This document shows, one piece after another, positions 3,420 to 52,184 of a stretch of DNA of 64,000 bases (positions are counted from its first letter, which is position 1; every line of letters starts with the position of its first letter). The stretch covers positions 746 to 64,745 of the forward strand of contig CAWJHE010000004.1 in NCBI GenBank assembly GCA_963842455.1. Reading direction: 5' to 3'. A model generated the notes under the pieces. The model searched no databases, was not told the DNA's origin, and worked only from the letters and a program-made list of their open reading frames with translations. Source of the DNA: an uncultured Chloroflexia bacterium (GTDB taxonomy: Bacteria; Chloroflexota; Anaerolineae; Anaerolineales; UBA4823). The translations under genes were made by a program, and so were the position numbers.

Positions 3420-4016
3420 TTAGGGGCTTTCTGATTTTGTCAAATACGCGTCCTGGATAGCCTCCCGAAAATGGGCTGCCAGTATTCTCAAAGGGTCAGA
3501 TGTGCGATGAACACGGCTGAGCAGGATGCCGCCTTCCAGGCTGACCATGATCAAACAGGCTTTTTCTTTCGCCAGCGCCGGGCTCATTCCTGAGCTGGTC
3601 ATCTTCTCTTCAAACGCAGATTGTAATTGGGCGTACACCTGCCGGCAAGCCTGGCTGATGCGCTCACTGGCAGCAGCCGACTCGATCGCTACGATGCTGA
3701 GCGGGTTGCCAGCTGAGAATTGCTTTTCCTCAATTTTGTCTGCCAGGCGTAAAATATAGGCATAGATCGCCTGGATTGGATCTGGATCTTTATCCAATTC
3801 TGCCCGCAAACGGTTTACCAGGATTTCTCCAGAATAGAGCACGGCCTCGCTGACAAGCTGTTCCTTGCCCTCTGGAAAATAATGGTAAAGAGAGCCCTTC
3901 GGCGCGCCGCTTTTTCGGACGATTTCGTTTAAACCAGTTGCCGGGAAGCCTTGTTTTTCAAGCAGAAAACAGGTGGCCTGGATAATTTGTTCTCGCGTGG
4001 TAGACATCAGGAACAT
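3420..4016 (-). CDS. TetR/AcrR family transcriptional regulator
   Basis: The N-terminal HTH 'TREQIIQATCFLLEKQGFPATGLNEIVRKSGAPKGSLYHYFPEGKEQL' is a classic TetR_N signature. Confidence 0.9.
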   Translation of the reverse strand: MFLMSTTREQIIQATCFLLEKQGFPATGLNEIVRKSGAPKGSLYHYFPEGKEQLVSEAVLYSGEILVNRLRAELDKDPDPIQAIYAYILRLADKIEEKQFSAGNPLSIVAIESAAASERISQACRQVYAQLQSAFEEKMTSSGMSPALAKEKACLIMVSLEGGILLSRVHRTSDPLRILAAHFREAIQDAYLTKSESP

Positions 4017-4188
4017 CCTATTGTTGCGGAATTCTCACGATTATATCGACCGGTCTAATTAATGTCAAGAGGTGCAATTGGCAATTTCACTTTTAGCCTG
4101 TAACGAGTATGATTTTGTAATCCGAGAGGAAATGATTGTGCAGGTATAGAAACATCATTTTGTGCGGATACGGTATAATCTTACCATA

Positions 4189-4407
4189 ATGACGATCGAT
4201 AATTGCTGGGATTTATGGAAGAGAAGGCAATTAATGACTGGCAGTGATGTCAATCGTACCCGAGCTTACTTAGCTATTGTGACCCATTTGGAACGGATAA
4301 CCATGTTTCGTCCACTCGAATCAATTAAAGACACCCATCAAAGAGAACAAGCCAAAAAGTTGCGAATCTGGTTCGAAGAAAGTTTCCTTAAGGACAAGCA
4401 TGAATGA
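4189..4407 (+). CDS. Small basic hypothetical protein (72 aa from the ATG at 4189)
   Basis: An ORF with TATAAT (4174-4179) 9 nt upstream of the ATG. It overlaps the next ORF by 8 nt. No recognisable domain. Confidence 0.3.
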   Translation: MTIDNCWDLWKRRQLMTGSDVNRTRAYLAIVTHLERITMFRPLESIKDTHQREQAKKLRIWFEESFLKDKHE

Positions 4408-4639
4408 CAATCACTGGCTGGACGGGTCTTTATATCCTGACATGGACCCACCCGACACACTAGATACCCTACCCGAGCAGGTGGATTTCCTGGCACGTTT
4501 ATGCGCTGCCTGGGATTTTGGCATCCTGCCAGAGGAAAGCACCGTTATAGGAGATCCGCAAACCCGAATGGACTCCTGCCGTCGATGCCTGCCGTTTATT
4601 GACCTCGCCAGCCTATCATCTGTTGCGCCGCTGGCATAA
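4400..4639 (+). CDS. Small acidic hypothetical protein (79 aa)
   Basis: D/E-rich ORF whose ATG lies inside the last codons of the preceding ORF. No recognisable domain. Confidence 0.3.
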   Translation: MNDNHWLDGSLYPDMDPPDTLDTLPEQVDFLARLCAAWDFGILPEESTVIGDPQTRMDSCRRCLPFIDLASLSSVAPLA

Positions 4640-4729
4640 CCTGTCGCGCCTGCCTTATTTAGGCCAGGATACTCGCCTACATTCGCGACGATCCCTGCCT
4701 GTCCCAGGTATAAACCCATGTCTCAAAAT

Positions 4730-5593
4730 ATGAAAGATAAAGATTTGCCTGGTCACAGGCGCTACTTCGGGTATCGGCAAGGAAACGGCCGCAGCCCTGG
4801 CATCCCAGGGCGCCACAGTCGTAATCACCGGACGCCGTCAGGCCAGAATTGAGGCTAGCTGTCCAGGAGATTAGCGCCAAGACCGGCAGCCCGAATATCC
4901 ATTCCCTGCAAGCCGATTTCTCCAACCTGGAAGAAGTGCAGGCGCTGGCAAACGCCTTCAAAGAGCGCTTCCAGCGGCTGGATGTTTTGGTGAATAATGC
5001 CGGCGCTTATTTCAACCGGCGCCATGAAAGGCTGGGGGAGGTCGAGCTGACCTTGGTGGTCAACCACCTGGCGCCATTTCTTTTGACCGGTCTGCTCTTG
5101 GACAGGTTGCTCTCCAGTTCACCAGCGCGTATCGTCAACGTCTCCTCCGGCGCGCATCATTATGACAAGCATGGATTTCAATAACCTGGGCTTTCAACGC
5201 GGTTATTTTGGGCTAAAAGCCTATGCCCGCTCCAAACTGGCCAATATCCTATTCACCTATGAGCTCGACCGCCGGTTGGGAAAGAACGGGGTCACGGTCA
5301 ACGCTGTGCACCCAGGGCAGGTCACCACCGACATCTGGCGCACCAACTTCTCAATTTTTGGACCCCTCGTCCAATGGCTGATCAGCTTGAATGCCCTAAC
5401 ACCCGAACAAGGAGCGCAGCCAGTAATACACCTGGCTTCATCTCCGCAAGCCGAGGGTATCTCCGGGAAATATTTTAACCGCATGAAAGTCCAGAAATCC
5501 TCTGCAATATCCTACGATGAAGTCCTGGCACAGCGTCTTTGGGGCGAGAGTGAGCGCCTGACAGGTTACCACTACCCTGAGATTACCTGTTAA
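4730..5593 (+). pseudogene. Short-chain dehydrogenase/reductase (SDR) interrupted by at least 3 frameshifts
   Basis: The Rossmann motif '[21 protein letters not shown]' lies in a frame with no start codon. 'VLVNNAGA' and 'YARSKLANILFTYEL' (the YxxxK motif) lie in two further frames. The breaks are near 4735, 4855 and 5165. Confidence 0.7.
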
Positions 5594-5610: not shown

Positions 5611-5910
5611 GGCACCTTGTAGGTCATGCAAAATGGTCTGTGTAATAAGCTTTCAAAAAAACTCTGCGGATCTGCGAGAGATCAAAAAGCTCAACGTACC
5701 TTGTGGGTCATGCAAAATGATCTGTGAGATAGGCTTTCAAAAAAAGCTCTGCGGACTCTGCGGCTCTGCGAGAGAACAAAATTCTCAACGTACCTTGCGG
5801 ATCATGCAAAATGATCTGTGAGATAGGCTTTCAATAAAAAGTTCTGCGGACTCTGCGGCTCTGCGAGAGATAAGAAAATCTTTGCGTACTTTGCGACTTT
5901 GCGAGAAATA
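5611..5910 (+). repeat. Tandem array of three units plus a partial unit of repeat family A (85-95 bp period)
   Basis: Units start at 5611, 5696 and 5790. Each carries 'gtaccttg.gg.tcatgcaaaatgatctgtgagataggctttcaa' followed by 'ctctgcggactctgcggctctgcgagaga'. A degenerate tail 'ctttgcgtactttgcgactttgcgagaaa' follows. Confidence 0.8.
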
Positions 5911-5961
5911 ACCAACTAAAGTTTGTGCTACATAAAGGCTTTGCGAAAGATCAAAAAAATT

Positions 5962-6937
5962 ATGTCTTACATCACCTGGCTACGCCGGCATATCGGCAAT
6001 CAAAAAACGATCCTGGTTTACACCAGCGTGGTGCTACAGGACTCCCAAGGCAGGGTTTTGCTGCAGCGGCGCACCGATATAGATATCTGGGGGCTACCAG
6101 GCGGCATCCTGGAGCCGGGTGAAACCCTGCTTGAATGCGCTCAGCGTGAATTGTTCGAAGAGACTGGCTTAACTGCTGGAGAGATGCGCCTGGTGGGGGT
6201 GTACAGCGAGCCCTGTTATGATGCGATCTACCCCAATGGCGACCAGGTGCAGCAATACACAGTCTGCTTTCAAGCCCAGGTGAATGGCGGCGAGATGCGC
6301 GCAGATGGCGATCGAAACCAGCGCCCTGGCCTTCATGGCGCCAGACGAAATTCCCTATGCTGAGCTGCCAAATTTTTACCAGGCCATGTTAACAGATGCC
6401 CTCCACAGACCAGGGGCTAACGGTTATCAACCCGCGTTCACGCCACCCGTTTCGCAATCGCTGCTGGTCAATCCCATTGAAGTCGTCCGCCCCTTGATCG
6501 GTAATGCCCTCTATGTTGGCGCAGGCGCCATAGCCGTGGTGAAGCGAGCGGACGGAAAATTGTTAGTTGTACGCCGCACGGATAACGGCGAATGGTCCTT
6601 GCCAGGCGGCTTTTTGCATATGGGGGAAAACGCAGCCAACGCTGCCCAACGCGAAGTGCTGGAAGAGACTGGCCTCCACATCCAGATCCAGCGCCTGATG
6701 GGTGTCTTTTCACCCGCCTATAACTGGGTCTATCCCAACGGCGACCAGGTGCACGCAGTGGTATCCGTTTTTAAAGCTATCCCTACCGGCGGCGTGGAAA
6801 AGGCTGACCAGGTCGAAACCAGCCAGGTGGGATGGATGCACCCACAGGAGCTGGCAAGCTTATCAACCCTACCCATTCTAAAAGAACTCAACCAGGCAGT
6901 TATCTCCCATCTGAACCAGGGTGTATTTATCCACTAG
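5962..6937 (+). CDS. Tandem double-NUDIX hydrolase (two Nudix domains), one frameshift near 6300
   Basis: There are two Nudix boxes: 'GLPGGILEPGETLLECAQRELFEETGL' and 'SLPGGFLHMGENAANAAQREVLEETGL'. ORFs 5923-6363 and 6284-6937 join as '..VNGGEMRADG/IETSALAFMAPDEIP..'. Confidence 0.7.
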
Positions 6938-6971: not shown

Positions 6972-7294
6972 GAGACTGCTTCGCACAGACCGCTCCTAAT
7001 GACAACTGTCATTGCGAACGAAGTGAAGCAATCTCTCCTCTCGACTGGCGCTGTGATTGCTTCGCACAGAACGCTCGCAATGACGCGCACTGACAGCACA
7101 TGCATGTAACGCAAACTGGCGCATGCTCCTAATGACAAGCGTTATTGCGAGGATAGCGCTCTTTGCCCGGAGGTCAGCGTTCATTGCTGACCCAGCACTC
7201 TCTCCTCTCGACTGGCGCTGAGATTGCTTCGCACAGACCGCTCGCAATGACGCGCACTGGCAGCACATGCATGTAACGCAAACTGTCAGTTTGC
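6972..7294. repeat. Repeat family B cluster (imperfect palindromic 'gtcattgcga..gaagcaatc / gattgcttcg..ctcgcaatgac' elements, with an internal ~164 bp direct duplication)
   Basis: 'ctctcctctcgactggcgctg.gattgcttcgcacaga.cgctcgcaatgacgcgcactg.cagcacatgcatgtaacgcaaactg' occurs twice (about 7033 and 7197). The core is the reverse complement of the units at 18058-18406. Confidence 0.75.
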
Positions 7295-11482: not shown

Positions 11483-12631
11483 ATGGATTCGCAGCAAGAA
11501 GATCTCTTTACCCCTCTGCATAATTTACGCAAAGAATGGTCTTTTTTTGCCGCGCTGAGTATATTATACCTTTCGGCTGGCTTTGCACTTCTGGCATTGA
11601 GCTGGCAAGTACATTTTGCAGCCATCTGGGGACTGACAGGTGCAGTTACGCTAATTTACCAACTATCGGTACTCTGGTCAGGGTTACCTCGCAACCATCG
11701 CCAGGGTGAGATCGATATCCTGCCAAGTCTGGGCTGGGGAAATTGCCTGACTTTGCTACGTGGCATATTAATTGCCGGGCTAGGTGGTTTTCTTTTCTTA
11801 CCCGAACCAGAAGGCTGGCTAGCCTGGCTGCCAGGAATTTTCTACACCCTGGCAATCGCCGCCGACTTCTTTGACGGCTACCTGGCTCGCATCACAAACC
11901 ATGCCACTCGCCTGGGAGAAATCCTGGATATGAGCTTTGATGGACTGGGTATTCTGGCGGCTATCATCCTGGCTGTGCTATATGATCGACTGCCTAACTG
12001 GTACTTGATTGTAGCATTTGCTCGCTATGCCTTTGTTTTTGGGCTATGGCTGCGAACGCGTCTTGGCAAAGTCAATTACGATCTTCCTCCCAGCATCCGC
12101 AGGCGTGCACTCGCCGGATTTCAAATGGGCTTTCTAGCGGTGATGCTATGGCCCTTATTTTCACCTCCTGGAACCCATGTCGCCGCCCTTTTGTTCGGTA
12201 TTCCTATCTTACTGGGATTTCTTCAGGATTGGCTTTATGTGACTGGCTTCATTCAATCAGGCGCCCTCCCTAAAAACCAATCGCTACAAAAGGTGATCCA
12301 TTGGCTTCCATTACTTTTCCGCGCCGGCGTGGTTTCGCTTGGCGCTGCTCTTATCTTCCCCGACTTGGCAGTTCTTAACCAACTCTCCAGCTCCCAAGCC
12401 GCGCTGGTTCTCGCTGACCTGGCTGTTATCATCCTTTTGACAGCCGGCGTCACCACACGCTCAGCAGCCATCGTCGGGCTGATTTTGCTGGGCTTTCACC
12501 AGCTTTTTGCCAGTCTCAGCCTCGCCCAAATCTCTCTGGCCTGCGGTTATGCCGTGATTCTCTTTTTAGGTGGTGGACCTTTTTCGTTATGGACGCCAGA
12601 GGAATACCTGGTCTTACCACCGCGCCGGTGA
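11483..12631 (+). CDS. CDP-alcohol phosphatidyltransferase family protein with an extended C-terminal membrane domain
   Basis: It matches D-x2-DG-x2-AR-x8-G-x3-D-x3-D exactly: 'DFFDGYLARITNHATRLGEILDMSFD'. Confidence 0.85.
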   Translation: MDSQQEDLFTPLHNLRKEWSFFAALSILYLSAGFALLALSWQVHFAAIWGLTGAVTLIYQLSVLWSGLPRNHRQGEIDILPSLGWGNCLTLLRGILIAGLGGFLFLPEPEGWLAWLPGIFYTLAIAADFFDGYLARITNHATRLGEILDMSFDGLGILAAIILAVLYDRLPNWYLIVAFARYAFVFGLWLRTRLGKVNYDLPPSIRRRALAGFQMGFLAVMLWPLFSPPGTHVAALLFGIPILLGFLQDWLYVTGFIQSGALPKNQSLQKVIHWLPLLFRAGVVSLGAALIFPDLAVLNQLSSSQAALVLADLAVIILLTAGVTTRSAAIVGLILLGFHQLFASLSLAQISLACGYAVILFLGGGPFSLWTPEEYLVLPPRR

Positions 12632-12661
12632 AACTGCCATGCTCAAAGGGGAGCAAACATC

Positions 12662-13759
12662 ATGAAGACTGGCTGGAGAATTGGGATAATTTTCGGATTT
12701 GCGAGTGTCCTGCTCGTCTGGTGGACCGTTCAGCATATATCTCTTGAGGAAGTCTGGTTGTCGATCAGCCAGTTGAGCATTGGTCAAATTACTTCTCTGA
12801 TACTGCTTAACCTCTTGATAATTTTGCTGTTTACAAGCCGCTGGTGGCTTATCCTAAAAGCATCTGGTTATGCCGTGCCTTACCTGAGTCTAACCGGTTA
12901 TCGCCTGGCTTCGTTCGCAGTCAGCTACTTCACCCCAGGCACTCAATTTGGTGGCGAGCCGCTCCAGGTACATTTGCTGAGCAAGAAACATCATATCCCC
13001 TCAACCACCGCCCTGGCTTCTGTAGCCTTGGATAAGCTCTTAGAGTTAATTGCAAATTTCTCCTTCCTCAGCCTGGGATTATGGCTTATCATCACCAATG
13101 GTCAAAAATTGACTGGATCATCTGCCCAAGGCTGGCTTTCTGGGATAAATGGCTTGCAAGCTGTTGCCTGGCTGAGCATCTTGATTAGCCTACCCTTGAT
13201 CTATCTGTTTCTGCTATGGCGAGGCAGGTTCCCATTCGCCGAAATGAGCCGGCGATTACCAACTCCCATTTTGCGAACCAGACTTTTCCACAACCTGCCA
13301 GCGTTCCTGGCTTCAACCGAAAGACAAATCTCCACCCTTTTCCGTCTCTCTCCGCGCACCATCTCACTCAGTGGCTTGTTATCGATAGTTATCTGGGTTC
13401 TGATGGGGTTTGAATTCTGGTTGATGATCCGTTTCCTTGGCAACAACCTGGGGCTCGTCCAGTTGATCACAGTATTAACCGCCGCTCGCCTGGCTTTTCT
13501 GATGCCTTTGCCAGGTGGCATCGGCGTTTTGGAAGCCAGCCAGGTTCTGGCTATGCAGGCTTTGGGGCTCAGCCCTGCTTTGGGCATCAGCATTAGTTTG
13601 CTAATCCGTACCCGCGATATGTCACTCGGCCTGGTAGGTCTGTGGCTTGGAGCAGTTTTGACCCCCCATAAGCCTTCAGTTGAGCAGGGAACTGAAGTGG
13701 CCGAAACTTTTCCTGGCACAACAGGATCATATCCAATACAATCTTTGAAGGAGGTGTAG
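12662..13759 (+). CDS. Flippase-like / lysylphosphatidylglycerol-synthase TM-region family protein (UPF0104)
   Basis: 365-aa polytopic protein. '..LPGGIGVLEASQVLAM..' is typical of the UPF0104/MprF N-terminal family. Confidence 0.7.
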   Translation: MKTGWRIGIIFGFASVLLVWWTVQHISLEEVWLSISQLSIGQITSLILLNLLIILLFTSRWWLILKASGYAVPYLSLTGYRLASFAVSYFTPGTQFGGEPLQVHLLSKKHHIPSTTALASVALDKLLELIANFSFLSLGLWLIITNGQKLTGSSAQGWLSGINGLQAVAWLSILISLPLIYLFLLWRGRFPFAEMSRRLPTPILRTRLFHNLPAFLASTERQISTLFRLSPRTISLSGLLSIVIWVLMGFEFWLMIRFLGNNLGLVQLITVLTAARLAFLMPLPGGIGVLEASQVLAMQALGLSPALGISISLLIRTRDMSLGLVGLWLGAVLTPHKPSVEQGTEVAETFPGTTGSYPIQSLKEV

Positions 13760-13789
13760 GATGAATCTGAAATCTTAAACAATGGGGAA

Positions 13790-14102
13790 TTGTCTTGTCT
13801 AACCCTGCTAACAGCCATTATCCATTTTTCACTTACTCTTCCCCGATCTTCTTTTTATCTTAAATGGGCAGGATTTTTAACCTTATTGGCAGCCTATATT
13901 TTACCAAACCAATACTTCCGGCAAAATCGCGCACTAATCCGCATTGCTTTCATGGCTTTTACAGCCATAACCATCCTGGCCTGGGTGGCTATCGGCGATA
14001 AGTCCTGGCCAGCAGGTATGCTGGGCTACTATCACCAAAGCCATCGAACTGGCATTATTGGGTCTGCTATGGAGCGACCGCCGGTCATCAGGAGGGCATT
14101 AG
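13790..14102 (+). CDS. Small membrane protein, probably frameshifted near 14030
   Basis: The N-terminus is hydrophobic in the listed frame. A plausible C-terminus '..ITKAIELALLGLLWSDRRSSGGH*' lies in another frame and ends 2 nt before the ribA ATG. Confidence 0.3.
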
Positions 14103-14104
14103 AA

Positions 14105-14749
14105 ATGAAAGAAATTAGCGTTGAACGAAAAGTCACTGCACGTATTCCTACCGAAGAGGCCGAATTTCGACTGGCCTTATACCATAACAACCAGGATGAT
14201 AAAGAACACCTGGCGCTGATCCTGGGTGAACTCAGCAACCAGGAAAATGTGCTGGTAAGGGTGCATTCCGAATGCTTCACTGGCGATGTGCTTGGCTCTA
14301 GGCGCTGCGATTGCGGCGAACAATTGAAGACAGCCATGCAGATCATCGCCCAGGCTGGCAGCGGCGTCGTCCTATACCTGCGTCAGGAGGGCCGGGGCAT
14401 CGGCTTGCTCAACAAACTGCATGCCTACAACCTGCAAGACCAGGGCTATGACACAGTCGAAGCCAACCTGCTCCTGGGGCATCAGGCTGACGAACGCGAT
14501 TACACCATGGCAGCTTTAATCCTGGAAGACCTCGGGATACGCTCTATCCAGCTGATTACCAACAACCCAACCAAAATCCAGCATTTGCAGGAATTGGGCG
14601 TTGATGTAACCCAGCGCGTCCCGCTTGAGCCCACCATCTATGAAGATAACGCTGCGTATTTGTTCACCAAGATGGTGCGCATGGATCATCTCTACCAGCT
14701 TGGACTTTCGCCCATCGGGGTCATGGCAGCCAGTCATGCAGATCATTGA
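14105..14749 (+). CDS. ribA: GTP cyclohydrolase II (monofunctional RibA)
   Basis: 'VRVHSECFTGDVLGSRRCDCGEQL..LYLRQEGRGIGLLNKLHAYNLQDQGYDTVEAN' is a near-textbook GCH II sequence. An AGGAGG Shine-Dalgarno lies 9 nt upstream of the ATG at 14105. Confidence 0.9.
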   Translation: MKEISVERKVTARIPTEEAEFRLALYHNNQDDKEHLALILGELSNQENVLVRVHSECFTGDVLGSRRCDCGEQLKTAMQIIAQAGSGVVLYLRQEGRGIGLLNKLHAYNLQDQGYDTVEANLLLGHQADERDYTMAALILEDLGIRSIQLITNNPTKIQHLQELGVDVTQRVPLEPTIYEDNAAYLFTKMVRMDHLYQLGLSPIGVMAASHADH

Positions 14750-15449
14750 GCAATGGCTGGAGCAATCTGCTGAGCATGTGCAGCAGATAGGTCGCCCGCT
14801 GGTCACGGTTAGTTACGCCCAGAGCCTGGACGGGAGCATCACCGCCAAACGCGGTCAGCCGCTTGCGCTGAGCGGAGCAGCCTCAAGCCGCTTCACCCAC
14901 CAGCTCCGTTCTCTGCACGATGCCATCCTGGTCGGTGTGGGAACTGTGCTGGCAGACGACCCCCTGCTAACGGTACGGCATGTACCGGGCAAGCATCCCC
15001 AACCGGTCATCCTGGACAGCCACCTGCGCACCCCGCTGCATGCCCGCCTGGTCGCCCAGCATCCTGGTCAGGTCTGGATAGCCGCCGCACAAACGGCTGA
15101 GCCAGAACGCATCCAGCGGTTGCAAGACGCCGGCGCCAGAGTGATCCTACTGCCAACCGAACCGCAAAACAGGGTTTCCTTAAGCAAACTCCTGCAAAGC
15201 CTGGCTTCCCAGGGCATCCGTAGCTTAATGGTCGAAGGCGGCGCCCAGGTTATCACCAGCTTTTACCAGCAAGGCCTGGCAGACCAGGTGGTTCTAACCC
15301 TGGCGCCAGTCTTCGTTGGTGGGTTACCGGCTGTTACCCCTCAACAGCCTTTGGGTGAAAATGCGGAACAACTACCTCGCCTGACCGAAAGCGGTTCACA
15401 CTGGCTGGGAGAAGATCTGATCGTGTGGGGAAAGCTGCGTTACTCATGA
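14736..15449 (+). CDS. RibD C-terminal-domain reductase (dihydrofolate-reductase-like), with no deaminase domain
   Basis: 'PLVTVSYAQSLDGSI..LHDAILVGVGTVLADDPLLTVR..LMVEGGAQVITSF' is a RibD_C signature. The ATG overlaps the end of ribA by 14 nt. No HAE/PCxxC deaminase motif is present. Confidence 0.8.
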   Translation: MQIIEQWLEQSAEHVQQIGRPLVTVSYAQSLDGSITAKRGQPLALSGAASSRFTHQLRSLHDAILVGVGTVLADDPLLTVRHVPGKHPQPVILDSHLRTPLHARLVAQHPGQVWIAAAQTAEPERIQRLQDAGARVILLPTEPQNRVSLSKLLQSLASQGIRSLMVEGGAQVITSFYQQGLADQVVLTLAPVFVGGLPAVTPQQPLGENAEQLPRLTESGSHWLGEDLIVWGKLRYS

Positions 15450-16468
15450 AAACAGTTTACCGGCAATCTTTGTTTTTCACTGCGCCAGGTGAGGTCGAAG
15501 TCCGCAGGGAACCCATCCCGGAAGTATTGCCAGATCAGGTCCTGGTTCAAACCATCCTGAGCGCCATCAGCCCTGGCACGGAATCGCTCATCTATCAAGG
15601 TCTCTTTCCCCAAGAGTTGCCCCTGGATGCTAACTTACCTGCCCTATCATCCAGTTTTGCCTACCCATTAAAGTATGGCTATGCTGCCATCGGTAAAGTG
15701 ATTGAGGCAGGAGAGCAAGTCGATCCAGACTGGGTCGGTCGCCTGGTTTTTGCCTTCAATCCCCACGAAAGCCATTTCACCAGCCGCCCCGAGGATTTAC
15801 ACATCATTCCAAGTCATCTCTCACCTGAGGAGGCCGTATTCCTGCCCAACATGGAAACGGCTGTCAACCTGGTAATGGATGGTCGTCCCATCTTGGGAGA
15901 AAATGTAATCGTCTTTGGTCAGGGAATTGTCGGCCTGCTCACCAGCGCTTTGTTAAGCCAGTTTCCCTTAGGCAAGCTGGTTACCGTAGACCGCTACCCT
16001 TTGCGCCGCAGTGCGTTGGATGCCATTGGTGTGCACACCAGTCTCGACCCGGCTCAATCCGGCTTTACCGAGCTGGCAATGCGCAGCCTTGCAGGTGCAG
16101 CGGACCTGAGTTTTGAGCTCTCCGGTGCGCCAGAAGCCCTGGACCAGGCCATCGCAGTCACCGGCTTTGGCGGGCGCATCGTGATTGGCTCCTGGTATGG
16201 ACAAAAGCGCGCCAACCTGGACCTGGGCGGTTGGTTTCACCGCAGCCGCATCCAGCTCATCAGCAGCCAGGTGAGCACCATCGCTCCTGAATTCAGCGCA
16301 CGTTGGGATAAACAACGGCGTTTTCAACTAGCCTGGGACAAGCTGGCTCAAATTCGCCCTTCCCGATGGATCACCCATCGCTTTCCGATCAGCCAGGCGG
16401 CGGAGGCTTATCGCCTGATCACCCACCAGCCTGATGCCTGTCTGCAGGTCATCTTGACTTACGAATAA
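15446..16468 (+). CDS. Medium-chain dehydrogenase/reductase (zinc-type alcohol dehydrogenase superfamily)
   Basis: It has the Rossmann motif 'VIVFGQGIVGLLTSALL' and MDR-like length and layout. It overlaps the upstream stop as ATGA. Confidence 0.8.
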   Translation: MKTVYRQSLFFTAPGEVEVRREPIPEVLPDQVLVQTILSAISPGTESLIYQGLFPQELPLDANLPALSSSFAYPLKYGYAAIGKVIEAGEQVDPDWVGRLVFAFNPHESHFTSRPEDLHIIPSHLSPEEAVFLPNMETAVNLVMDGRPILGENVIVFGQGIVGLLTSALLSQFPLGKLVTVDRYPLRRSALDAIGVHTSLDPAQSGFTELAMRSLAGAADLSFELSGAPEALDQAIAVTGFGGRIVIGSWYGQKRANLDLGGWFHRSRIQLISSQVSTIAPEFSARWDKQRRFQLAWDKLAQIRPSRWITHRFPISQAAEAYRLITHQPDACLQVILTYE

Positions 16469-16480
16469 AACGAGGAATAA

Positions 16481-16867
16481 ATGTACACTGTCGCAGTTAA
16501 ACGCAATTTTATCGCCCAACATTTCCTGATTGGCGGAGATTGGGGGGCGGAAAACCAAAACCATTCGCACCACTACCAGCTCGAATTACAGTTGCACGGA
16601 GAAAGACTGGACCAACACGGTTACCTGGTCGACATCGTGCAGATTGAACAAACTCTGCAGGAGCTGGTAAACAAATATCAAGACCAGACCCTCAATCATC
16701 TGCCTGAATTTGAAGGTCTCAACCCCAGCATCGAGCACTTTAGCCGCATCCTGTGCCAGCAATTGGCTCAAAATATCCATGCGCCGACTTTGCATGCTTT
16801 GACCGTCAAGTTGTGGGAAAATGAAATTGCCTGGGCTTCTTTCCAGATGCACTTCCCATCTGCGTAA
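16481..16867 (+). CDS. 6-pyruvoyl-tetrahydropterin synthase / QueD-family T-fold protein (atypical)
   Basis: 128 aa. 'FIAQHFL....NHSHHYQLEL' corresponds to the His ligands of the PTPS/QueD 'H...C...HGH' motif, but no Cys precedes the HxH. Confidence 0.8.
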   Translation: MYTVAVKRNFIAQHFLIGGDWGAENQNHSHHYQLELQLHGERLDQHGYLVDIVQIEQTLQELVNKYQDQTLNHLPEFEGLNPSIEHFSRILCQQLAQNIHAPTLHALTVKLWENEIAWASFQMHFPSA

Positions 16868-16920
16868 GGACCGGAAGCCAAAACATAGCAAGTATTTGAT
16901 GTGAGACTATCACAAGAACG

Positions 16921-18048
16921 ATGCACATTGCCCTGCTCATCTATGGAAATCTGGAAACAGTTTCCGGTGGATACCTTTATGATCGCAAACTGGTCGAACA
17001 CCTGCGCAGCCAGGGCGACCAGGTAGAAATCATATCGATCCCCTGGCGAAGCTACCCGCTTCTCCTGGCGGATAACTTCTCCGCTTCACTTTTCCACCGC
17101 ATGCAGAATTTGCAGGTGGATATACTTCTGCAGGACGAGCTCAATCATCCTTCGTTGTTTTTACTCAATCAGCGTATGCGCAAGGAAACCAAGATTCCCC
17201 TGGTGTCTATCGTGCATCATCTACGCAGCAGTGAGCAACGATCCGCCTGGCAAAACATCCTGTTCAAAGCGATTGAAAGGCGATACCTGGACAGTGTAGA
17301 TGCCTTGATCTTCAACAGCCGGGCAACCCAAAAAGCTGTTCTTGAGTGCAATGCTTCTTTGAAAGATAAGCCCTCTCTAATCGCCTTCCCCGCTGGAGAT
17401 CGCTTCAAGCCTGCCTGGGATTTGTTGGAAACACAAAAGCGCGCAGACCAGCCTGGCCCTTTAAAAATTGTTTTTATCGGCAATCTCATCCCACGCAAAG
17501 GATTAGACAGCCTGCTTAAAGCCCTAAAATACATACCAGCCCATTTATGGGAGCTGAATGTGATCGGCAGCCTGGAGCTTGACCCTTTTTATGCCCAAAA
17601 GATGCGAAAGCTTGTGTCCAAGTTGGACATGACAAAACACGTGAAATTTCTGGGGACTGTGCCAGACACGCTCATAGCGCAAACCCTGTCGAATAGTCAC
17701 CTGCTAGCCGTGCCATCCAGCTACGAAGGCTTTGGGATCGTTTACCTGGAAGGTATGAGTTTTGGTCTGCCAGCCATTGGCGCAAAAGCTGGCGGTGCAC
17801 AAGAAATCATCCAGCATGGGCATAACGGTTTCCTGGTCGAACCTGGCGATGTTGAAAGGTTAAGCGCTCATATTTCCAATCTGGCTACAGACCGTCAAAA
17901 GCTGGTAGAAATGAGCCTGGCAGCTCGTCGCAGCTTTGAATCGCACCCCAGTTGGGAAATGACTGGTGCGCAGATTCGCAATTTCCTGCTTACAATTAAT
18001 GAAAACCGCAATGCAGCGTCTACACCAGCTAAAACAAGTTTGCCTTAA
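16921..18048 (+). CDS. GT4-family (GT-B) glycosyltransferase
   Basis: 'PSSYEGFGIVYLEGMSFGLPAIGAKAGGAQEIIQHGHNGFLVEPGD' is the classic Glycos_transf_1 E-x7-E region. Confidence 0.85.
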   Translation: MHIALLIYGNLETVSGGYLYDRKLVEHLRSQGDQVEIISIPWRSYPLLLADNFSASLFHRMQNLQVDILLQDELNHPSLFLLNQRMRKETKIPLVSIVHHLRSSEQRSAWQNILFKAIERRYLDSVDALIFNSRATQKAVLECNASLKDKPSLIAFPAGDRFKPAWDLLETQKRADQPGPLKIVFIGNLIPRKGLDSLLKALKYIPAHLWELNVIGSLELDPFYAQKMRKLVSKLDMTKHVKFLGTVPDTLIAQTLSNSHLLAVPSSYEGFGIVYLEGMSFGLPAIGAKAGGAQEIIQHGHNGFLVEPGDVERLSAHISNLATDRQKLVEMSLAARRSFESHPSWEMTGAQIRNFLLTINENRNAASTPAKTSLP

Positions 18049-18057
18049 TCAGCAAAG

Positions 18058-18406
18058 AGCGTTGGCCAATTACAATGTCACTGCGAGTAACGCTAGGTTA
18101 CCAGGGTGCCATCCAGTCTGAAGCGACAACCGAAAGCGGGAGTCATTGCGAGCGTTCTGTGCGAAGCAATCTCGGTACTAGTCAAGAGGTGAGATTGCTT
18201 CACTGTGTTCGCAATGACAGTTGTCATTAGTATAGCGTTGGCCAATTACGATGTCACTGCGAGTAACGCTAGGTTACAAGGGTGCCATCCAGTCTGAAGA
18301 GACAGCCGAAAGCGGGAGTCATTGCGAGCGTTCTGTGCGAAGCAATCTCGGTACTAGTCAAGAGGTGAGATTGCTTCACTGTGTTCGCAATGACAGTTGT
18401 TATTAG
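18058..18406. repeat. Two tandem 176-bp units of repeat family B (opposite orientation to 6972-7294)
   Basis: The units start at 18058 and 18234 and are nearly identical. Each contains 'gtcattgcgagcgttctgtgcgaagcaatctc...gagattgcttcactgtgttcgcaatgac', a long imperfect palindrome. Confidence 0.85.
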
Positions 18407-18451
18407 AGGCGAACTTTGCGAAGTAGTCTAAATTACCATACAACTTATCAG

Positions 18452-18471
18452 GAACAAACTGAAGTTTGTTC
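18452..18471. promoter_or_regulatory. Perfect 8-bp inverted repeat 'gaacaaac-tgaa-gtttgttc' 24 nt upstream of the methyltransferase ATG
   Basis: Seen directly. Related copies of the motif occur at 7376-7400 and 5914-5938, each at the 3' edge of a repeat cluster. Confidence 0.4.
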
Positions 18472-18494
18472 TACATATAAAAGGATAACTCAAG

Positions 18495-19433
18495 ATGCAG
18501 TCAATTACCGAATATTCATTTCCACGCTACCTGGCGGCGAAGAAGAGCGTCGACGACCGTGCTTTGAATCGCCAGGTCTGGGACACTTTGGCAGCTCAAC
18601 TACCAACTGCATCGAAACAGAAACCACTCAGGGTGCTGGAGATTGGCGCCGGAATAGGCACGATGATCGAGCGTATGCTGGAGTGGAAATTGCTGCAACA
18701 GGCTCACTACACCGCGCTTGACTCGCTGCCCGAAAATGCACAAGCAGCGCTTACCGCGCCTCTCAAAATGGGCAGCCAGGCAACACATGCAAATATATTC
18801 CAAAAGCGCCTTACCATTGGGCAAGTAGCCGACTCTCATCGAAGAAAAAAGGTCGAAGTTGAATACCACTCAGAGGATCTTTTTGCCTTCATCGAACACC
18901 AAAGCGGTCAACAACAATGGGATTTGCTGGTTGCACATGCCTTCTTAGATCTGGTAGATATCCCTGCCACTTTGCCACTGCTTCGCCCATTGCTGTCACC
19001 AGGTGGTAGTTTCTATTTCAGCCTGAATTTTGATGGTGCGAGCATCTTTGAGCCAGGCATTGATCCTGGTTTCGACCGTCTGGTGGAAGCTTTATATCAC
19101 CAGAGTATGGACGAACGCGTGATCGCAGGCCAACCTGCTGGAGACAGCCAGGCTGGTCGCCACCTCTTCACCCATCTCCGCCAGGCAGGTTTCACGGTTA
19201 CCGGTGCGGGTGCATCCGATTGGGTTGTGTTTCCCACCAACGGTTCCTATCCCCACGATGAGGCTTACTTTCTGCATTTCATCATCCATACTATTTTCGA
19301 GGAATTAAAAAATCATCCAGAAATGGATACCCACCGCTTTGAGGCCTGGGTCTCGAAACGACGCCAGCAAATCGAAGATGCTGAATTGGTGTACATTGCA
19401 CATCAATTAGATTTTGTGGGAACACCAGCATAA
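18495..19433 (+). CDS. Class I SAM-dependent methyltransferase
   Basis: It carries motif I '[17 protein letters not shown]' and has the overall length of a Methyltransf_12/23-type protein. Confidence 0.8.
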
Positions 19434-19566: not shown

Positions 19567-20172
19567 ATGGGAGGCGTTAAACCCTTAAAAAAACCTGGAG
19601 TCAATTTGAACGTTAAGCGTTTAGTAACTGATTATTTCTGGCTGCTGTTTGGAGCAGGCCTCATCGTCTTTCTAGATCAGCTCAGCAAAGGATGGGTGCG
19701 TAACAACCTGTCCTTGGGAGAAGTATACCGGCCAGAATTGTGGATCACGCCTTTTGCCCGCATCTTGCATTGGAGCAATACCGGCTCTGCTTTTGGTTTA
19801 TTCCCGAACATGAGCGGCGTTTTTACAGTTTTAGCATTCCTTGTCTCGGCTGCAATTATCTATTATTACCCACAAGTCCCCGGAAATGACCGTTTGCTAC
19901 GCCTGGCAATGATCCTACAATTAGGTGGCGCTGTCGGCAACCTGGTTGACCGCCTGATCCAAGGGCATGTCACCGATTTTCTCTCTGTGGGCAATTTCCC
20001 TGTTTTTAATGTTGCCGATGCCAGCATTTCCACCGGTGTTGCTGTTTTGGTGCTCGGCATCTTCCTTAAAGAGCGACAAGAAAAAGCGGCATCCAGCCGG
20101 GAGATCAACGCATCTGCCTCACAAATCTCATTGAATGATCCAAGCAGCTGCAACACCGACCTCGATAGCTGA
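19567..20172 (+). CDS. lspA: Lipoprotein signal peptidase (signal peptidase II), copy 1
   Basis: 'NTGSAFGLF', 'GGAVGNLVDRL..GHVTDF' and 'FPVFNVADASISTG' are LspA hallmarks. Confidence 0.85.
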   Translation: MGGVKPLKKPGVNLNVKRLVTDYFWLLFGAGLIVFLDQLSKGWVRNNLSLGEVYRPELWITPFARILHWSNTGSAFGLFPNMSGVFTVLAFLVSAAIIYYYPQVPGNDRLLRLAMILQLGGAVGNLVDRLIQGHVTDFLSVGNFPVFNVADASISTGVAVLVLGIFLKERQEKAASSREINASASQISLNDPSSCNTDLDS

Positions 20173-20212
20173 GGTAAAATGGGGGCAAATCTTATATCTA
20201 TTGGAGCTTTCG

Positions 20213-20785
20213 TTGAAGACTCAACGCTATATAACTGATTATATTTTCTTGCTTGCTGGCGCAGCGATCATCATCTTCCTGGATCAGTGGTCCAAAGAAT
20301 GGATACGAACCAACCTGGCTTATGGGGAGATCTATCACCCAGAATTATGGCTGAGCCAGTATGTTCGTTTGATGCACTGGCGAAACACAGGAATCGTGTT
20401 TGGGCTTTTCCAGGATATCCACAAGCTATTTAGCCTTCTGCCTGCCATCATCTCTGCAGCAATTATTTTCTATTACCCCAGGGTACCCAAAGAAGACCGC
20501 TTGATTCGCTTCTCGATGATGCTTTACCTTGGTGGAGGCATAGGCAACTTGATCGATCGTCTGACCCAGGGTTATGTGACCGATTTTGTTTCTGTGGGAA
20601 ATTTCGCTGTTTTTAATGTTGCCGATGCCAGTATTTCGGTTGGTGTCGTCATTCTGGCTTTGGGGGTTTACCTGAAAGAACAAGAAGAAAAGAAATTAGC
20701 AGCCTCTGCTAAAGAGACACAAACTGAAGAACTCCCGGAACAGGCCGATGATTCGCAGCTTCCGGAGGAGAACAAACTTGAATGA
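20213..20785 (+). CDS. lspA: Lipoprotein signal peptidase (signal peptidase II), copy 2 (tandem paralogue)
   Basis: It carries 'NTGIVFGLF', 'GGGIGNLIDRL..GYVTDF' and 'FAVFNVADASISVG'. The start is placed at TTG 20213 after a GGAG. The duplicated 'agctgaggtaaaatggg' ATG at 20179 is out of frame. Confidence 0.8.
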   Translation: MKTQRYITDYIFLLAGAAIIIFLDQWSKEWIRTNLAYGEIYHPELWLSQYVRLMHWRNTGIVFGLFQDIHKLFSLLPAIISAAIIFYYPRVPKEDRLIRFSMMLYLGGGIGNLIDRLTQGYVTDFVSVGNFAVFNVADASISVGVVILALGVYLKEQEEKKLAASAKETQTEELPEQADDSQLPEENKLE

Positions 20786-25098: not shown

Positions 25099-27064
25099 AT
25101 GTACAATTTTACTGTCACAGCCTTAAGAACGATAAACGAACTGCTTTCTGCAGGCATTGCCATTACAGCATTTTCCTTGCTGCTATATGCGCTCTCATTC
25201 AATTTGCGTGATCGAGTCGCGCGCTCATTTGCTATCATCCTCCTATGCGTTGTGATTGTCTTCGTCTCCGAAGCGTTGAGCAGTGTTGCCCAGAATAATG
25301 AGCAGCTTGAACTCTGGCTGCGAATCCAATGGGTAGGGATTATCATTTTACCTGCAGCCTATTTGCATTTTTCCGATGCCTTACTCGCAACAACCGGTAG
25401 ACCTTCGCGAGGTCGCCGGAGTCTGGCTGTGCGCTTAGGCTATATAGCCTCCTTTGCCTTTTTGCTTACCTTACCATTTTCTTTATTAGTTGGTCCCCTG
25501 GTCACAAATGGTCAGCCAGCGCCGCACTTACAACGAACCTGGTTAAGCTGGATATTCATCACCTTATACCTGCTCAGCATGGCAGTTTCTTGGATCAACT
25601 TCTGGCGCGCCTACCGCCGAACAGTCGCCCGCACCAGCCGGAGGCGGATGTCCTACTTGATCACCGGCGCGTTAGCGCCTGCTTTGGGTTCTTTTCCATT
25701 TCTCCTATTTCGGCTTTAATTTTGCAGCCCAACACCAGCTCATCTTCTGGTCCACAGTTACACTGAGCAATTTACTTATCTCAGCCCTGCTTGTGTTGAT
25801 GGCCTACGCGGTAGCTTTCTTTGGTGTTCCCTGGCCTGACAGGGTAGTAAAAAGACGCCTGCTTAAATGGCTGATGCGCGGTCCAGTGACAGCTTCCACC
25901 ATCCTGGCAATCGCAACGATCCTGAGGCGCACTGGCGCCAGGTTTGGGTTAGATTTATCAGCCATTATTCTGACATCTACCGTTGCTTTAATATTGATTT
26001 TTGAGCACCTGATCACCTTAGTCGCTCCCATCTGGGAAAGATGGTTGTTTTCAGGAAAAGACCGTGAAGAAATGCAATTACTGCAGACTTTGGATGAACG
26101 ACTATTGACCGCCAGTGATATGCAGCAATTTCTTGAAGCTGTCCTGGCTGCAGTCTGCGACCGGTTGCAAGTTTCCAAAGCTTTTATTGCCGCTTTGGGA
26201 GCGCAAGGTTTAGAACGAATAGTAAAGATAGGAGGTGAAATAACGCTGGAAAAAGGCGAACTGTCTGCCAATCTACTGGAGGCTGTCTCCCAAAATAGTT
26301 TGACTCGAAGCTTGTTCTCTTGGGGAGAATATTGGATAATTCCACTTTATGACCCTGAGGAGATATCTGGCGAACTCTTAGGGCTGATGGGAGTCGTTCA
26401 CCAACCAGATCAAATCCTGGATGACGAACAATCTGATGCCCTCGACATGCTTTCCCAGCGGGTTGCGATTGCTCTCCGTGATCGCCGCAGGCAACAACAA
26501 GCATTTAGTTCGCTTGAAGAATTGACCCCACAAATGGACATGTTACAAAAGTTACGTGCAGCCGCCCGATATGATGGCAAGGAAATGCTGGCACTTGCAT
26601 CGTCCAGCACAAACCAGGGAGAGATGACTTCTTGGGTCAAAGATGCCCTCACCCACTTTTGGGGTGGCCCTAAGTTGACCCAGAATCCACTCCTACGTTT
26701 GCACCTGGTCGAACAAGCCTTATCAGAGGGTGAGGAAAATCCCACCAACGCATTACGTGGCATCCTGCGCAAAGCGATTGATCGTGTCCGCCCTGAGGGA
26801 GAACGCCGGTTTACAGCCGAATGGATTTTATACAACATCTTAGAAATGAAATTTATGGAAGGTCGCAAGGTCCGAGAAATTGCAGTTCGCCTGGCTATGT
26901 CAGAAGCCGATTTATACCGCAAACAACGCGTAGCCATCGAAGCAGTTGCAGAAGCAATTATTGAAATGGAACAAATTGCAACTGCACAAGAACCACTCAT
27001 TGACGAACAAAAACCATCTCAACTCAAAGATGAAAAGCAAAAAGGTGGACTTAATGGTAGGTAA
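25099..27064 (+). CDS. Multi-pass membrane sensor-like protein with a C-terminal HTH (sigma-70 region-4/LuxR-like), one frameshift near 25712
   Basis: The N-terminal 7TM-like segment continues across the break ('..PFLLFGFNFAAQHQLIFWSTVTLSNLLISALLVLMAY..'). The C-terminus reads 'GRKVREIAVRLAMSEADLYRKQRVAIEAV'. Confidence 0.55.
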
Positions 27065-28692: not shown

Positions 28693-28860
28693 AGCTACCG
28701 AATTCTGGCGCTACTACGATACCCATGCAAACCAGCTACAAGTTCAAAATCACATCCCAAGCATTGGGAGAATTATTCAGTCTCGATGGAATTCAAGATC
28801 ATATCAACGAATGTTCAATAAACAGGCGACTGCCTGCTTATCCAATCATCGGAGACCTGC

Positions 28861-37625: not shown

Positions 37626-37654
37626 TTGCTCGTTTCCCTTTGGATTGTTATAAT
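37626..37654 (+). promoter_or_regulatory. Candidate sigma-70 promoter of miaB (-35 TTGCTC, 17-nt spacer, -10 TATAAT) that would give a leaderless mRNA
   Basis: The -10 ends 7 nt before the ATG at 37662 and no Shine-Dalgarno is present. Confidence 0.4.
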
Positions 37655-37661
37655 ACTGGAC

Positions 37662-42556: not shown

Positions 42557-42593
42557 ATCAAAACTACCAATAAATCCGATTTTCCTCGTCCGA

Positions 42594-52164: not shown

Positions 52165-52184
52165 TTCCAAACAGGTCGGGAGGC

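Follow-up and report, generated by a model that had tools for sequence, protein, structure and literature searches.

A conserved cluster of GTP cyclohydrolase II, RibD-type reductase, T-fold and glycosyltransferase genes associated with lipid head-group genes in Chloroflexota and other lineages

GTP cyclohydrolase II (GCH II) and the RibD C-terminal reductase (RibD_C) resemble enzymes of early riboflavin synthesis, and their occurrence beside genes for a CDP-alcohol phosphatidyltransferase, a T-fold protein, a glycosyltransferase and a methyltransferase raises the question of whether such genes form a unit and what this unit could make. The locus lies at positions 11483–19433 of the window, i.e. 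the whole 64-kb stretch of DNA that was analysed. The first-pass annotation held that this is not a riboflavin operon and that no product had been assigned to such clusters. The former agrees with the window, in which neither ribB, ribH, ribE nor a deaminase domain was found anywhere in the 64 kb, nor any riboswitch, including the FMN type, using Rfam. The latter agrees with the searched literature, in which no paper assigns a product to the cluster.

Gene content of the locus

Open reading frames together with Pfam and NCBIfam matches define eight intact co-directional genes on the + strand. Nine had been annotated, but the small membrane gene between the second and third intact genes is frameshifted; likewise, the annotated intergenic distances of 30, 30, -14, -4, 12, 53 and 446 nt were reproduced, but the 2-nt gap upstream of the GCH II gene was not, as it was measured from a stop codon (14100–14102) in a different frame from that opened by TTG 13790. 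The small gene (13790–14102, +) was recognized by a weak Pfam DUF7475 match and by an orthologue alignment, which spans two frames and requires about three frame switches. The frame from TTG 13790 reads into the GCH II gene without a stop codon, and an AGGAGG sequence is located 8 nt upstream of the GCH II start codon (ATG 14105).

The first two genes encode lipid-side proteins. The CDP-alcohol phosphatidyltransferase (11483–12631, +; PF01066 CDP-OH_P_transf, 66.8 bits) carries additional membrane helices C-terminal to a PgsA-like core, and the motif D-FF-DG-YL-AR-ITNHATRL-G-EIL-D-MSF-D, previously described as perfect, is readable directly in its translation. Its best NCBIfam match is pgsA, below the cut-off for that family, and its sole PDB match is PgsA (7drj, 5e-5). 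The following gene (12662–13759, +) encodes an MprF/HpnL-type flippase-like membrane domain without a synthase domain (PF03706 LPG_synthase_TM, 139.6 bits; TIGR00374 above cut-off), in agreement with its earlier description as MprF-like.

The assignments of the remaining genes were all upheld. The monofunctional GCH II (14105–14749, +) matches PF00925 GTP_cyclohydro2 with 232 bits and TIGR00505 with 244.6 against a cut-off of 205.85, its PDB matches being RibBA and E. coli RibA (1e-56 to 1e-58), and the catalytic Tyr of its LHAYNLQ motif is kept here and in all 43 motif matches across loci. In the stand-alone pyrimidine nucleotide reductase (14736–15449, +) RibD_C was the only domain matched (PF01872, 166.7 bits; TIGR00227, 175 against a cut-off of 150), with no deaminase, and the best PDB match is 6p8c, deposited as 2,5-diamino-6-ribosylamino-4(3H)-pyrimidinone 5'-phosphate reductase. 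The MDR-superfamily dehydrogenase (15446–16468, +; PF00107 ADH_zinc_N) lacks zinc ligands and is BchC/polyol-dehydrogenase-like, given that its best NCBIfam match is BchC (sub-threshold) and its PDB matches are butanediol, xylitol, sorbitol and threonine dehydrogenases. The GxGxxG motif and the Asp at the end of beta-2 are kept in an alignment of 72 MDR orthologues, and this Asp marks the enzyme, as predicted from its sequence, as NAD-type.

The PTPS-like T-fold protein (16481–16867, +; PF01242, 89.9 bits) is of the SCO6650 type. The structure of SCO6650 (3d7j) is its best PDB match by sequence (1.4e-15) and also the best fold match of its model (pLDDT 88.5, TM 0.87). Residues H14, H28, H30, E24 and E113 are invariant in the alignment, so that the protein retains three zinc-binding His and the Glu that anchors the ring, with a further conserved Glu in place of the catalytic Cys. 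[quoted passage not shown] The sequence E-x3-H-S-H does not fit the published signatures of QueD, PTPS-II or PTPS-III (CxxxHGH, CxxxxxHGH and ExxHGH, respectively; PMC5041015).

The GT4 glycosyltransferase (16921–18048, +; PF00534 Glycos_transf_1, 123 bits) has PimB' as its best PDB match (2e-21) and also matches MshA, BshA and, at about 1e-12, tetrahydrobiopterin glucosyltransferases. The class I SAM-dependent methyltransferase (MT; 18495–19433, +) was recognized by weak Methyltransf_23/12 matches and has no PDB match by sequence; the best folds for its model (pLDDT 85.8) are 3mgg, RebM and phosphoethanolamine N-methyltransferases, with TM of approximately 0.5. The 446-nt interval between these two genes was said to be filled by repeats, and it does contain a tandem repeat at 18058–18406 (TRF; period 176 bp, 2.0 copies, 97 % identical). 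The repeat core is found again on the other strand at 6974–7250 (5 matches versus 0.01 expected), and since the GT4 and MT genes abut in relatives, e.g. in locus L001, this dispersed intergenic repeat, present in tandem, is an insertion here.

Conservation and rearrangement of the cluster

Relatives of the T-fold protein form 2398 clusters at 50 % identity (E<=1e-3) and are encoded in at least 570 species genomes, the best 80 all being Chloroflexota. Most retain the order GCH II, RibD_C, MDR, T-fold, GT4, MT. Among the 41 Chloroflexota loci flanked on either side by 6 kb or more, MDR and GT4 genes are each present in 38, the RibD_C gene in 35, the MT gene in 32, the GCH II gene in 29 and the flippase gene in 26, while transferase orthologues are cluster-linked in 25 of these well-flanked Anaerolineae loci. 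In all phyla sampled the MDR gene precedes the T-fold gene directly or at a short distance, and in almost every locus the GT4 gene comes immediately after the T-fold gene.

The position of the lipid module varies: in about 22 loci it precedes the core and shares its strand, and in about 16 it lies downstream in inverted orientation. The flippase gene moves together with the CDP-alcohol transferase gene on either strand, and in the Chloroflexota loci the module invariably brings along the small membrane gene, which comes after the flippase gene wherever the latter sits in the Anaerolineae loci. Other membrane proteins (DUF420, rhomboid and PlsC), as well as DUF7475, recur within the clusters.

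The same families are neighbours in more distant lineages. The cluster of the haloarchaeon Natronorubrum consists of a DUF7475 gene upstream of the CDP-alcohol transferase (30 % identity to the window), MDR (47 %), T-fold (45 %), GT4 (44 %) and MT (31 %) genes and contains neither GCH nor reductase. Locus L089 carries the transferase on the opposite strand, followed by MT, a GCH II::RibD_C fusion, MDR, T-fold, GT4 and HAD phosphatase genes. Loci L087, L088 and L090–L092 carry the core genes RibD_C, MDR, T-fold and GT4, sometimes together with MT (the RibD_C and MDR genes adjoining in L087 and L090–L092, and GT4 being fused to MT in L092); in these five loci no CDP-alcohol transferase was found within 10 kb, and the lipid link is therefore not universal. 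MT orthologues lie within the clusters of L086 (31 %), L089 (42 %) and L090 (35 %).

The suggested resemblance to the SCO6650/SCO6655 region of Streptomyces proved apt, both for the structure of SCO6650 and for its neighbours. The cluster SCO6648–SCO6655 comprises the same families, with MDR, SCO6650, GT4 and MT in the same order, together with a CDP-alcohol transferase, an LPG_synthase_TM protein of the same flippase family (112 bits), a creatininase-family gene and a GCH II (the SCO6655 paralogue). In Streptomyces, a GCH II paralogue of its own is reported to serve this cluster (Spoonamore et al. 2006), which speaks against housekeeping riboflavin genes. Identity is low (27 % for T-fold, 33 % for MDR), the MT and flippase pairs are not significant pairwise, and the Streptomyces GCH II has Met in place of the catalytic Tyr found in the window. 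Two further differences count against reading the cluster as the pathway set out below, namely that an ArfB-like (creatininase-family) gene is present instead of RibD_C, and that of the H-x-H pair only the first His is present in SCO6650 (LHGAT).

Since dozens of species from three phyla have the cluster genes side by side, their clustering is far beyond chance. The genes constitute a conserved unit built around RibD_C, MDR, T-fold and GT4, in most cases also MT, and this core is joined in several unrelated lineages by the CDP-alcohol transferase, often together with flippase-like and DUF7475 proteins. The proposed association with lipid genes has thus persisted through rearrangement and change of phylum, and conservation of the neighbours in relatives, on which the earlier reading depended, was observed.

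A putative route from GTP to a membrane-bound product

The chance that the nine genes represent one dedicated non-riboflavin pathway, leading from GTP to a membrane-bound glycosylated and methylated compound, is judged to be about even. In such a pathway, GCH II would open GTP to 2,5-diamino-6-ribosylamino-4(3H)-pyrimidinone 5'-phosphate, and the deaminase-less reductase would convert it to the ribityl form with the 2-amino group retained. In Anaerolineae, both enzymes may have an additional role in riboflavin synthesis. A reduction preceding deamination is indicated for the archaeal riboflavin route by the title of a study (Graupner et al. 2002) listed in PMC8305020, and a ribityl-diaminopyrimidine would therefore be already supplied there; the deaminase-less bacterial reductase and the absence of GCH and reductase from the haloarchaeal cluster both fit this reduce-first route.

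The NAD-type MDR dehydrogenase would subsequently oxidize the ribityl chain at one of its hydroxyls; at C2', such a step would be equivalent to an Amadori rearrangement and may allow ring closure to dihydroneopterin 3'-phosphate. In Chlamydia, the GCH II product and an Amadori step yield dihydroneopterin monophosphate (PMC4161248); that pathway (RibA and TrpF) similarly takes the GCH II product as the starting point for a pterin, with an Amadori-type change of the sugar chain, but no TrpF is encoded in this cluster, where reductase and dehydrogenase could form a two-step equivalent. Organisms with GCH I or MptA would need no second route to dihydroneopterin, so that the MDR and T-fold enzymes may make something other than a plain pterin. 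The T-fold enzyme, bearing zinc and glutamate, would rework the side chain, after which GT4 would add a sugar and the methyltransferase would methylate the product, both acting on putative acceptors.

Finally, in many lineages the PgsA-like transferase would link the compound through its polyol or phosphate end to CDP-diacylglycerol or, in archaea, CDP-archaeol. The flippase-like protein would then carry the product across the membrane. These last steps recall the phosphatidylinositol/PIM pathway, which combines a CDP-alcohol transferase, an acyltransferase and the GT4 enzymes PimA/PimB'; the present cluster has a PgsA/PIPS-like transferase and a GT4 enzyme with PimB' as its best PDB match, and a PlsC acyltransferase or HAD phosphatase accompanies some of the loci. 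However, inositol-phosphate synthase genes are absent here, and the head group appears to be supplied by GTP chemistry.

Alternative readings

It is possible, albeit not probable, that the core synthesizes a soluble pterin or pyrimidine glycoside (cf. biopterin glucoside, solfapterin and cyanopterin) and that the lipid genes serve a separate neighbouring function. The five loci with the core but no transferase agree with this, as do the distant homology of GT4 to tetrahydrobiopterin glucosyltransferases and the RebM-type sugar O-methyltransferases among the best MT folds. The known route to pterin glycosides (GCH I, PTPS-II, sepiapterin reductase and BGluT) likewise relies on a T-fold enzyme and a GT4-type glycosyltransferase along with a reductase or dehydrogenase, but the present cluster has GCH II instead of GCH I, a T-fold protein without the catalytic Cys, and attached lipid genes. 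Moreover, four independent lineages whose gene orders differ have the transferase tied to the core, the enzyme closest to GT4 in the PDB, PimB', acts on a lipid acceptor, and membrane proteins recur within the clusters, which argues against this reading.

Chloroflexota, Streptomyces and haloarchaea, the named lineages in which the cluster was found, are F420 producers. Together with the Glu at the position of the QueD Cys, this could suggest that the T-fold protein belongs to a known cofactor route, as a PTPS-III-type replacement of FolB in folate synthesis, as QueD or as the F420-linked PTPS-IV, whose role in F420 synthesis is cited as unpublished, PTPS-V being unassigned (PMC5041015). Such an assignment is improbable, given that the motif differs from those of PTPS-III, QueD and PTPS-II, that no folK/folP, queC/queE or F420 genes were seen in the cluster gene tables examined, and that a GT4, a methyltransferase and a CDP-alcohol transferase would be superfluous to all of these routes.

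The likeness to early riboflavin synthesis (RibA and the archaeal/fungal-type reductase ArfC/Rib7) lies in GCH II and RibD_C, which pass riboflavin-type models, and in the best PDB match of the reductase, whereas the constant partners here are the MDR dehydrogenase, the T-fold protein and GT4. That housekeeping riboflavin genes (ribA and reductase) simply lie beside unrelated glycolipid genes is highly improbable: both proteins exceed the NCBIfam cut-offs, GCH II keeps its catalytic Tyr and no further rib gene was seen within the 64 kb, so that a second rib copy is unproven, but the deaminase, ribB, ribH, ribE and the FMN riboswitch are missing from the window, RibD_C, MDR, T-fold and GT4 genes remain adjacent even in distant lineages, and L089 has a GCH II::RibD_C fusion within such a cluster.

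Organization of the cluster in the window

The genes at 11483–19433 (+ strand) encode, in order, a CDP-alcohol phosphatidyltransferase, a flippase-like protein, a small membrane protein, GTP cyclohydrolase II (GCH II), a deaminase-less RibD reductase (RibD_C), an MDR dehydrogenase, a T-fold protein, a GT4 glycosyltransferase and a SAM methyltransferase (MT). This list of families, proposed in the first-pass annotation, is borne out by co-directional ORFs with matching Pfam or NCBIfam assignments, and the intergenic gaps given there (30, 30, −14, −4, 12, 53 and 446 nt) are correct. The longest gap, described as filled by repeats, indeed holds two tandem copies of a 176-bp repeat (18058–18406). 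The GT4 and MT genes on either side of it abut in relatives, and the gap is therefore an insertion into a tight operon. The repeat is dispersed and intergenic, with the core TCATTGCGAGCG-N7-CGAAGCAATC, for which five hits were found in the window vs 0.01 expected; apart from the tandem pair, these are three copies on the − strand between the NUDIX and sigma-factor genes (6974–7002, 7055–7083 and 7222–7250). A separate 94-bp tandem repeat (5614–5870, two to three copies, 82–93 % identity) is located upstream of the NUDIX genes. Promoter and terminator scans gave no signal above background level.

The first-pass annotation had to be revised in one respect, which concerns the small DUF7475-like membrane gene (13790–14102). 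It had been counted as a gene, but its reading frame is broken, with approximately three frame switches relative to its orthologues, seemingly at homopolymer runs. The 2-nt gap reported upstream of GCH II is measured from the stop codon at 14100–14102, which is in a different frame from the ORF opening at 13790; the latter frame continues into GCH II with no stop codon between. Further genes of the window appear to be split likewise, namely those encoding a MiaB/RimO-like methylthiotransferase (37626–39039, whose UPF0004 and Radical_SAM/TRAM domains fall on two overlapping ORFs), a histidine kinase (25099–27064, a single 653-aa gene in the Chloroflexota locus L001) and possibly a NUDIX protein (5923–6937), which suggests assembly indel errors or some gene decay.

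Conservation of the cluster in Bacteria and Archaea

The cluster genes constitute a conserved unit with a definable core. In the comparison of gene neighbourhoods that the first-pass annotation had proposed, the cluster families were found to co-occur in Chloroflexota, Streptomyces, the haloarchaeon Natronorubrum and other distant loci. One genome per species was scanned, and the window proteins were then mapped onto the loci obtained; T-fold relatives occur in at least 570 species genomes, with the best 80 loci all belonging to Chloroflexota. The T-fold and MT homologues at 55–94 % identity come from Anaerolineales, Anaerolineae or Chloroflexota where named. For the gene counts, 41 loci were used, each flanked by 6 kb or more on either side: MDR and GT4 genes are each present in 38 of them, RibD_C in 35, MT in 32, GCH II in 29, the flippase-like gene in 26 and the CDP-alcohol transferase in 25. 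The commonest order is GCH II, RibD_C, MDR, T-fold, GT4, MT. In approximately 22 loci, the lipid module (the transferase and flippase-like genes) is found upstream and on the same strand, and in approximately 16 it is inverted and downstream, with the small membrane gene adjoining the flippase gene in both arrangements. That the linkage of this module survives inversion is strong evidence of shared function.

Synteny with the window spans the entire neighbourhood in CP070639.1, a complete Anaerolineales genome (sigma factor, anti-sigma, ABC transporter, cluster, LspA, RluD, threonine aldolase, PNP). A PlsC-type acyltransferase is encoded there at the position of the window's two lipid genes. 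Directly after the cluster, the window contains two tandem LspA (signal peptidase II) paralogues (19567–20172 and 20135–20785), and relatives have either two copies or one. Recurrent additional genes in the Chloroflexota loci encode a DUF420 membrane protein, a rhomboid, a second methyltransferase, a PRTase, a PlsC acyltransferase and a 4HBT thioesterase. In one Anaerolineae group (L008, L011, L015, L019, L025, L034, L038, L041 and L050), the gene for the DUF420 protein (~160 aa) separates MDR from T-fold, and in another the rhomboid protease gene separates MT from the lipid module. In four loci, a divergent RibD_C gene downstream of MT replaces the usual copy.

A comparable context in Streptomyces coelicolor had been suggested for the region of SCO6650, a T-fold protein (PDB 3d7j), and SCO6655, a GCH II paralogue. 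This parallel is correct: SCO6650 is the closest solved structure, and its neighbours in the Streptomyces locus (L085), as read from the gene table and a Pfam scan, are of the same families. They comprise a CDP-alcohol transferase, an MDR dehydrogenase, a GT4, a methyltransferase-domain ORF, an LPG_synthase_TM protein, a creatininase-family gene and GCH II, and the parallel thus extends to the lipid genes. The creatininase-family (ArfB-like) ORF (L085 14119–14883, − strand, 226 bits with Pfam), which is absent from the stored gene calls, is flanked by the flippase-like gene and GCH II. At the active site, 'AQRLHGAT' of SCO6650 aligns to the window-type 'ENxxHSHH' with a different residue at the Glu and the second His. 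The MT and flippase of the window and of Streptomyces match only in Pfam family and gene position, their pairwise BLAST comparisons being not significant. The best 120 SCO6650 homologues are 91–98 % identical to it and come from Streptomyces where named.

The two Natronorubrum loci (L086 and L093) encode DUF7475, CDP-alcohol transferase, MDR, T-fold, GT4 and MT proteins that are 30–47 % identical to their window counterparts. Among the other distant loci, L089 has the transferase on the opposite strand, followed by MT, a GCH II::RibD_C fusion (3805–5208, 467 aa), MDR, T-fold, GT4 and a HAD phosphatase; L087 and L090–L092 contain RibD_C, MDR, T-fold and usually GT4, once as a GT4::methyltransferase fusion (L092 10456–12276, 606 aa); and L088 contains MDR, T-fold and GT4. 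The extra ORFs of the distant clusters have no Pfam matches. MDR, T-fold and GT4 make up the universal core, which RibD_C and MT usually accompany and which GCH II joins in several lineages of bacteria. The CDP-alcohol transferase is not found in every lineage, but it is present with the core in four independent ones.

This gene context, in its Streptomyces form, has reportedly been noted since 2006–2008, and the T-fold subfamily is said to have been catalogued in 2012. The new findings are that orthologous versions of the cluster are widespread in both Bacteria and Archaea, that its core is defined, that fusion proteins tie pathway steps together and that the lipid genes are part of the cluster in several lineages. 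The enzyme families are all familiar, but no characterised pathway is known to use their combination. In agreement with the first-pass annotation, which knew of no assigned product, neither a product nor a function was found in the searchable literature, including that on SCO6648–6655, on SCO6650 and on combinations of these enzymes.

Properties of the encoded proteins

The monofunctional GCH II passes TIGR00505 (244.6 vs a cut-off of 205.85), and its catalytic Tyr position is occupied, within the motif 'LHAYNLQ'. This Tyr, reportedly the catalytic residue (E. coli Y105; Spoonamore et al. 2006), is kept in 43 motif matches across the loci and is replaced by Met only in the Streptomyces copy. 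The Met is said by the same authors to make SCO6655 stop at the formylated product, which would fit the adjacent gene for a creatininase/ArfB-like deformylase. RibD_C passes the riboflavin-type domain model, and its best PDB match was deposited as a 2,5-diamino-6-ribosylamino-pyrimidinone 5'-phosphate reductase.

The C-terminal half of the MDR protein resembles polyol and threonine dehydrogenases (PDB matches), and the GxGxxG motif and Asp typical of NAD users are kept (72 orthologues). Pfam detected no ADH_N domain. A zinc-dependent polyol dehydrogenase was rejected, as the catalytic zinc ligands (Cys, His, Glu) are missing: 'AISPGTE' and 'YGYA' stand, as judged by eye, in place of GxCGSD and GHE.

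The motif of the T-fold protein, ENQNHSH, reads E-x3-H-S-H, a pattern invariant in 28 orthologues. The conserved residues include three His, a Glu that takes the place of the QueD Cys and a further Glu, the anchor for a 2-amino-4-oxo ring in this fold. The published signatures are CxxxHGH for QueD, CxxxxxHGH for PTPS-II and ExxHGH for PTPS-III (PMC5041015). QueD/PTPS-I and PTPS-II were excluded, as Glu rather than Cys precedes the H-x-H pair, and TIGR03367 scores 49 vs a cut-off of 89; PTPS-III (FolB bypass) was rejected because its ExxHGH differs from E-x3-H-S-H. Structure 3d7j is the closest solved relative by profile (1.4e-15) and also ranks first in the fold search (Foldseek TM 0.87, rmsd 1.9, with a T-fold model of pLDDT 88.5). 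When 1.8 billion representative proteins were searched with the T-fold profile, 2398 clusters matched at E≤1e-3, and almost all of the top 150 representatives with a locatable H-x-H pair keep E-x3-H-x-H.

The GT4 protein is closest in the PDB to the lipid-acceptor enzyme PimB' and is related to MshA, BshA and tetrahydrobiopterin glucosyltransferases; these matches span lipid, polyol-phosphate and pterin acceptors, and hence do not settle the acceptor. MT weakly matches class I SAM methyltransferases in Pfam; it has no PDB match by sequence, and a fold search returned generic class I methyltransferases only (TM about 0.5). The transferase motif D-x2-DG-x2-AR-x8-G-x3-D-x3-D is complete and readable in translation. 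The protein scores 66.8 with PF01066 (cut-off of 22), is PgsA-like and passes no equivalog model. The flippase-like protein consists of an LPG_synthase_TM/HpnL-like domain alone (PF03706), with no synthase domain; MprF was rejected on the absence of the lysyl-PG synthase domain and on the bifunc_MprF score (25 vs a cut-off of 600).

A possible pathway and its alternatives

The boldest reading, which should be regarded as rather doubtful, is that the product is a membrane lipid of a new class, or a cofactor anchored in the membrane, common to Chloroflexota, Streptomyces and haloarchaea, whose head group is a glycosylated, methylated pterin or ribityl-diaminopyrimidine derived from GTP independently of GCH I. 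In the pathway considered most likely, GCH II would open GTP, and the deaminase-less reductase would then yield 2,5-diamino-6-ribitylamino-4(3H)-pyrimidinone 5'-phosphate. Bacteria normally deaminate before reducing and hence do not make the ribityl-diaminopyrimidine compound. Archaea reduce first, as the title of Graupner et al. 2002 (cited in PMC8305020) indicates. The haloarchaeal cluster contains neither a GCH nor a reductase gene, while the bacterial clusters carry their own reductase, which supports a ribityl-diaminopyrimidine entry point. The NAD-type dehydrogenase may subsequently oxidise one of the ribityl hydroxyls; if this happened at C2', the outcome would equal that of an Amadori rearrangement, and the ring could close to give dihydroneopterin 3'-phosphate, the same logic as in the RibA and TrpF bypass of Chlamydia (PMC4161248). 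The T-fold enzyme may rework the side chain, and GT4 and MT may decorate the product. The PgsA-like transferase could link CDP-diacylglycerol or CDP-archaeol to the compound through a polyol or phosphate end, the HAD phosphatase, where present, could take off the terminal phosphate, and the flippase-like protein would presumably carry the product across the membrane.

A pathway to a soluble glycoside, accompanied by an unrelated lipid module, agrees with the lineages that have no transferase gene, but it leaves the repeated linkage of the transferase elsewhere unexplained. Plain riboflavin synthesis is unlikely, since rib genes are missing from the window and the partner genes are conserved across phyla. 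The first-pass view that this is not a riboflavin operon stands: the RibD deaminase domain is absent, with only PF01872 (RibD_C) matching (residues 58–266 of the long ORF), no ORF of at least 140 aa in the 64-kb window matches the ribB, ribH or ribE Pfam families, and an Rfam scan of the whole window returned 0 hits, including no FMN riboswitch upstream. In Anaerolineae, GCH II and RibD_C may nevertheless do double duty with riboflavin synthesis. The toxoflavin (tox) cluster has ToxC and ToxD alongside GCH II, RibD and a methyltransferase; no T-fold, GT4 or MDR gene is known in it. A role of the T-fold protein in folate, queuosine or F420 synthesis fits neither its motif nor its neighbours. 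A review (PMC5041015) names a 'PTPS-IV' subfamily as involved in F420 synthesis but presents no data for this.

The breadth of the cluster, from at least 570 species genomes to Streptomyces and a haloarchaeon, points to a widespread, overlooked metabolite, lipid or cofactor. Such a compound would give a function to SCO6650 and the SCO6655-type GCH II, would explain why bacteria keep a deaminase-less RibD reductase and might show that biology has a second way of turning GTP into a pterin-like ring. S. coelicolor and haloarchaea are genetically tractable, and the question is directly testable there.

Elsewhere in the window, the genes at 28685–29755, 41576–42616 and 52137–53198 include an N6/N4 DNA methylase, MoaA and a luciferase-like monooxygenase, and in relatives the cluster is linked to none of them; MoaA performs the first step of molybdenum cofactor synthesis, likewise from GTP. 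Two large RHS-repeat proteins are encoded on the − strand (58015–59967 and 60774–63269), one with a C39-like peptidase domain, and their genes lie in patches of raised G+C content (0.57–0.59 vs about 0.48–0.51 elsewhere).
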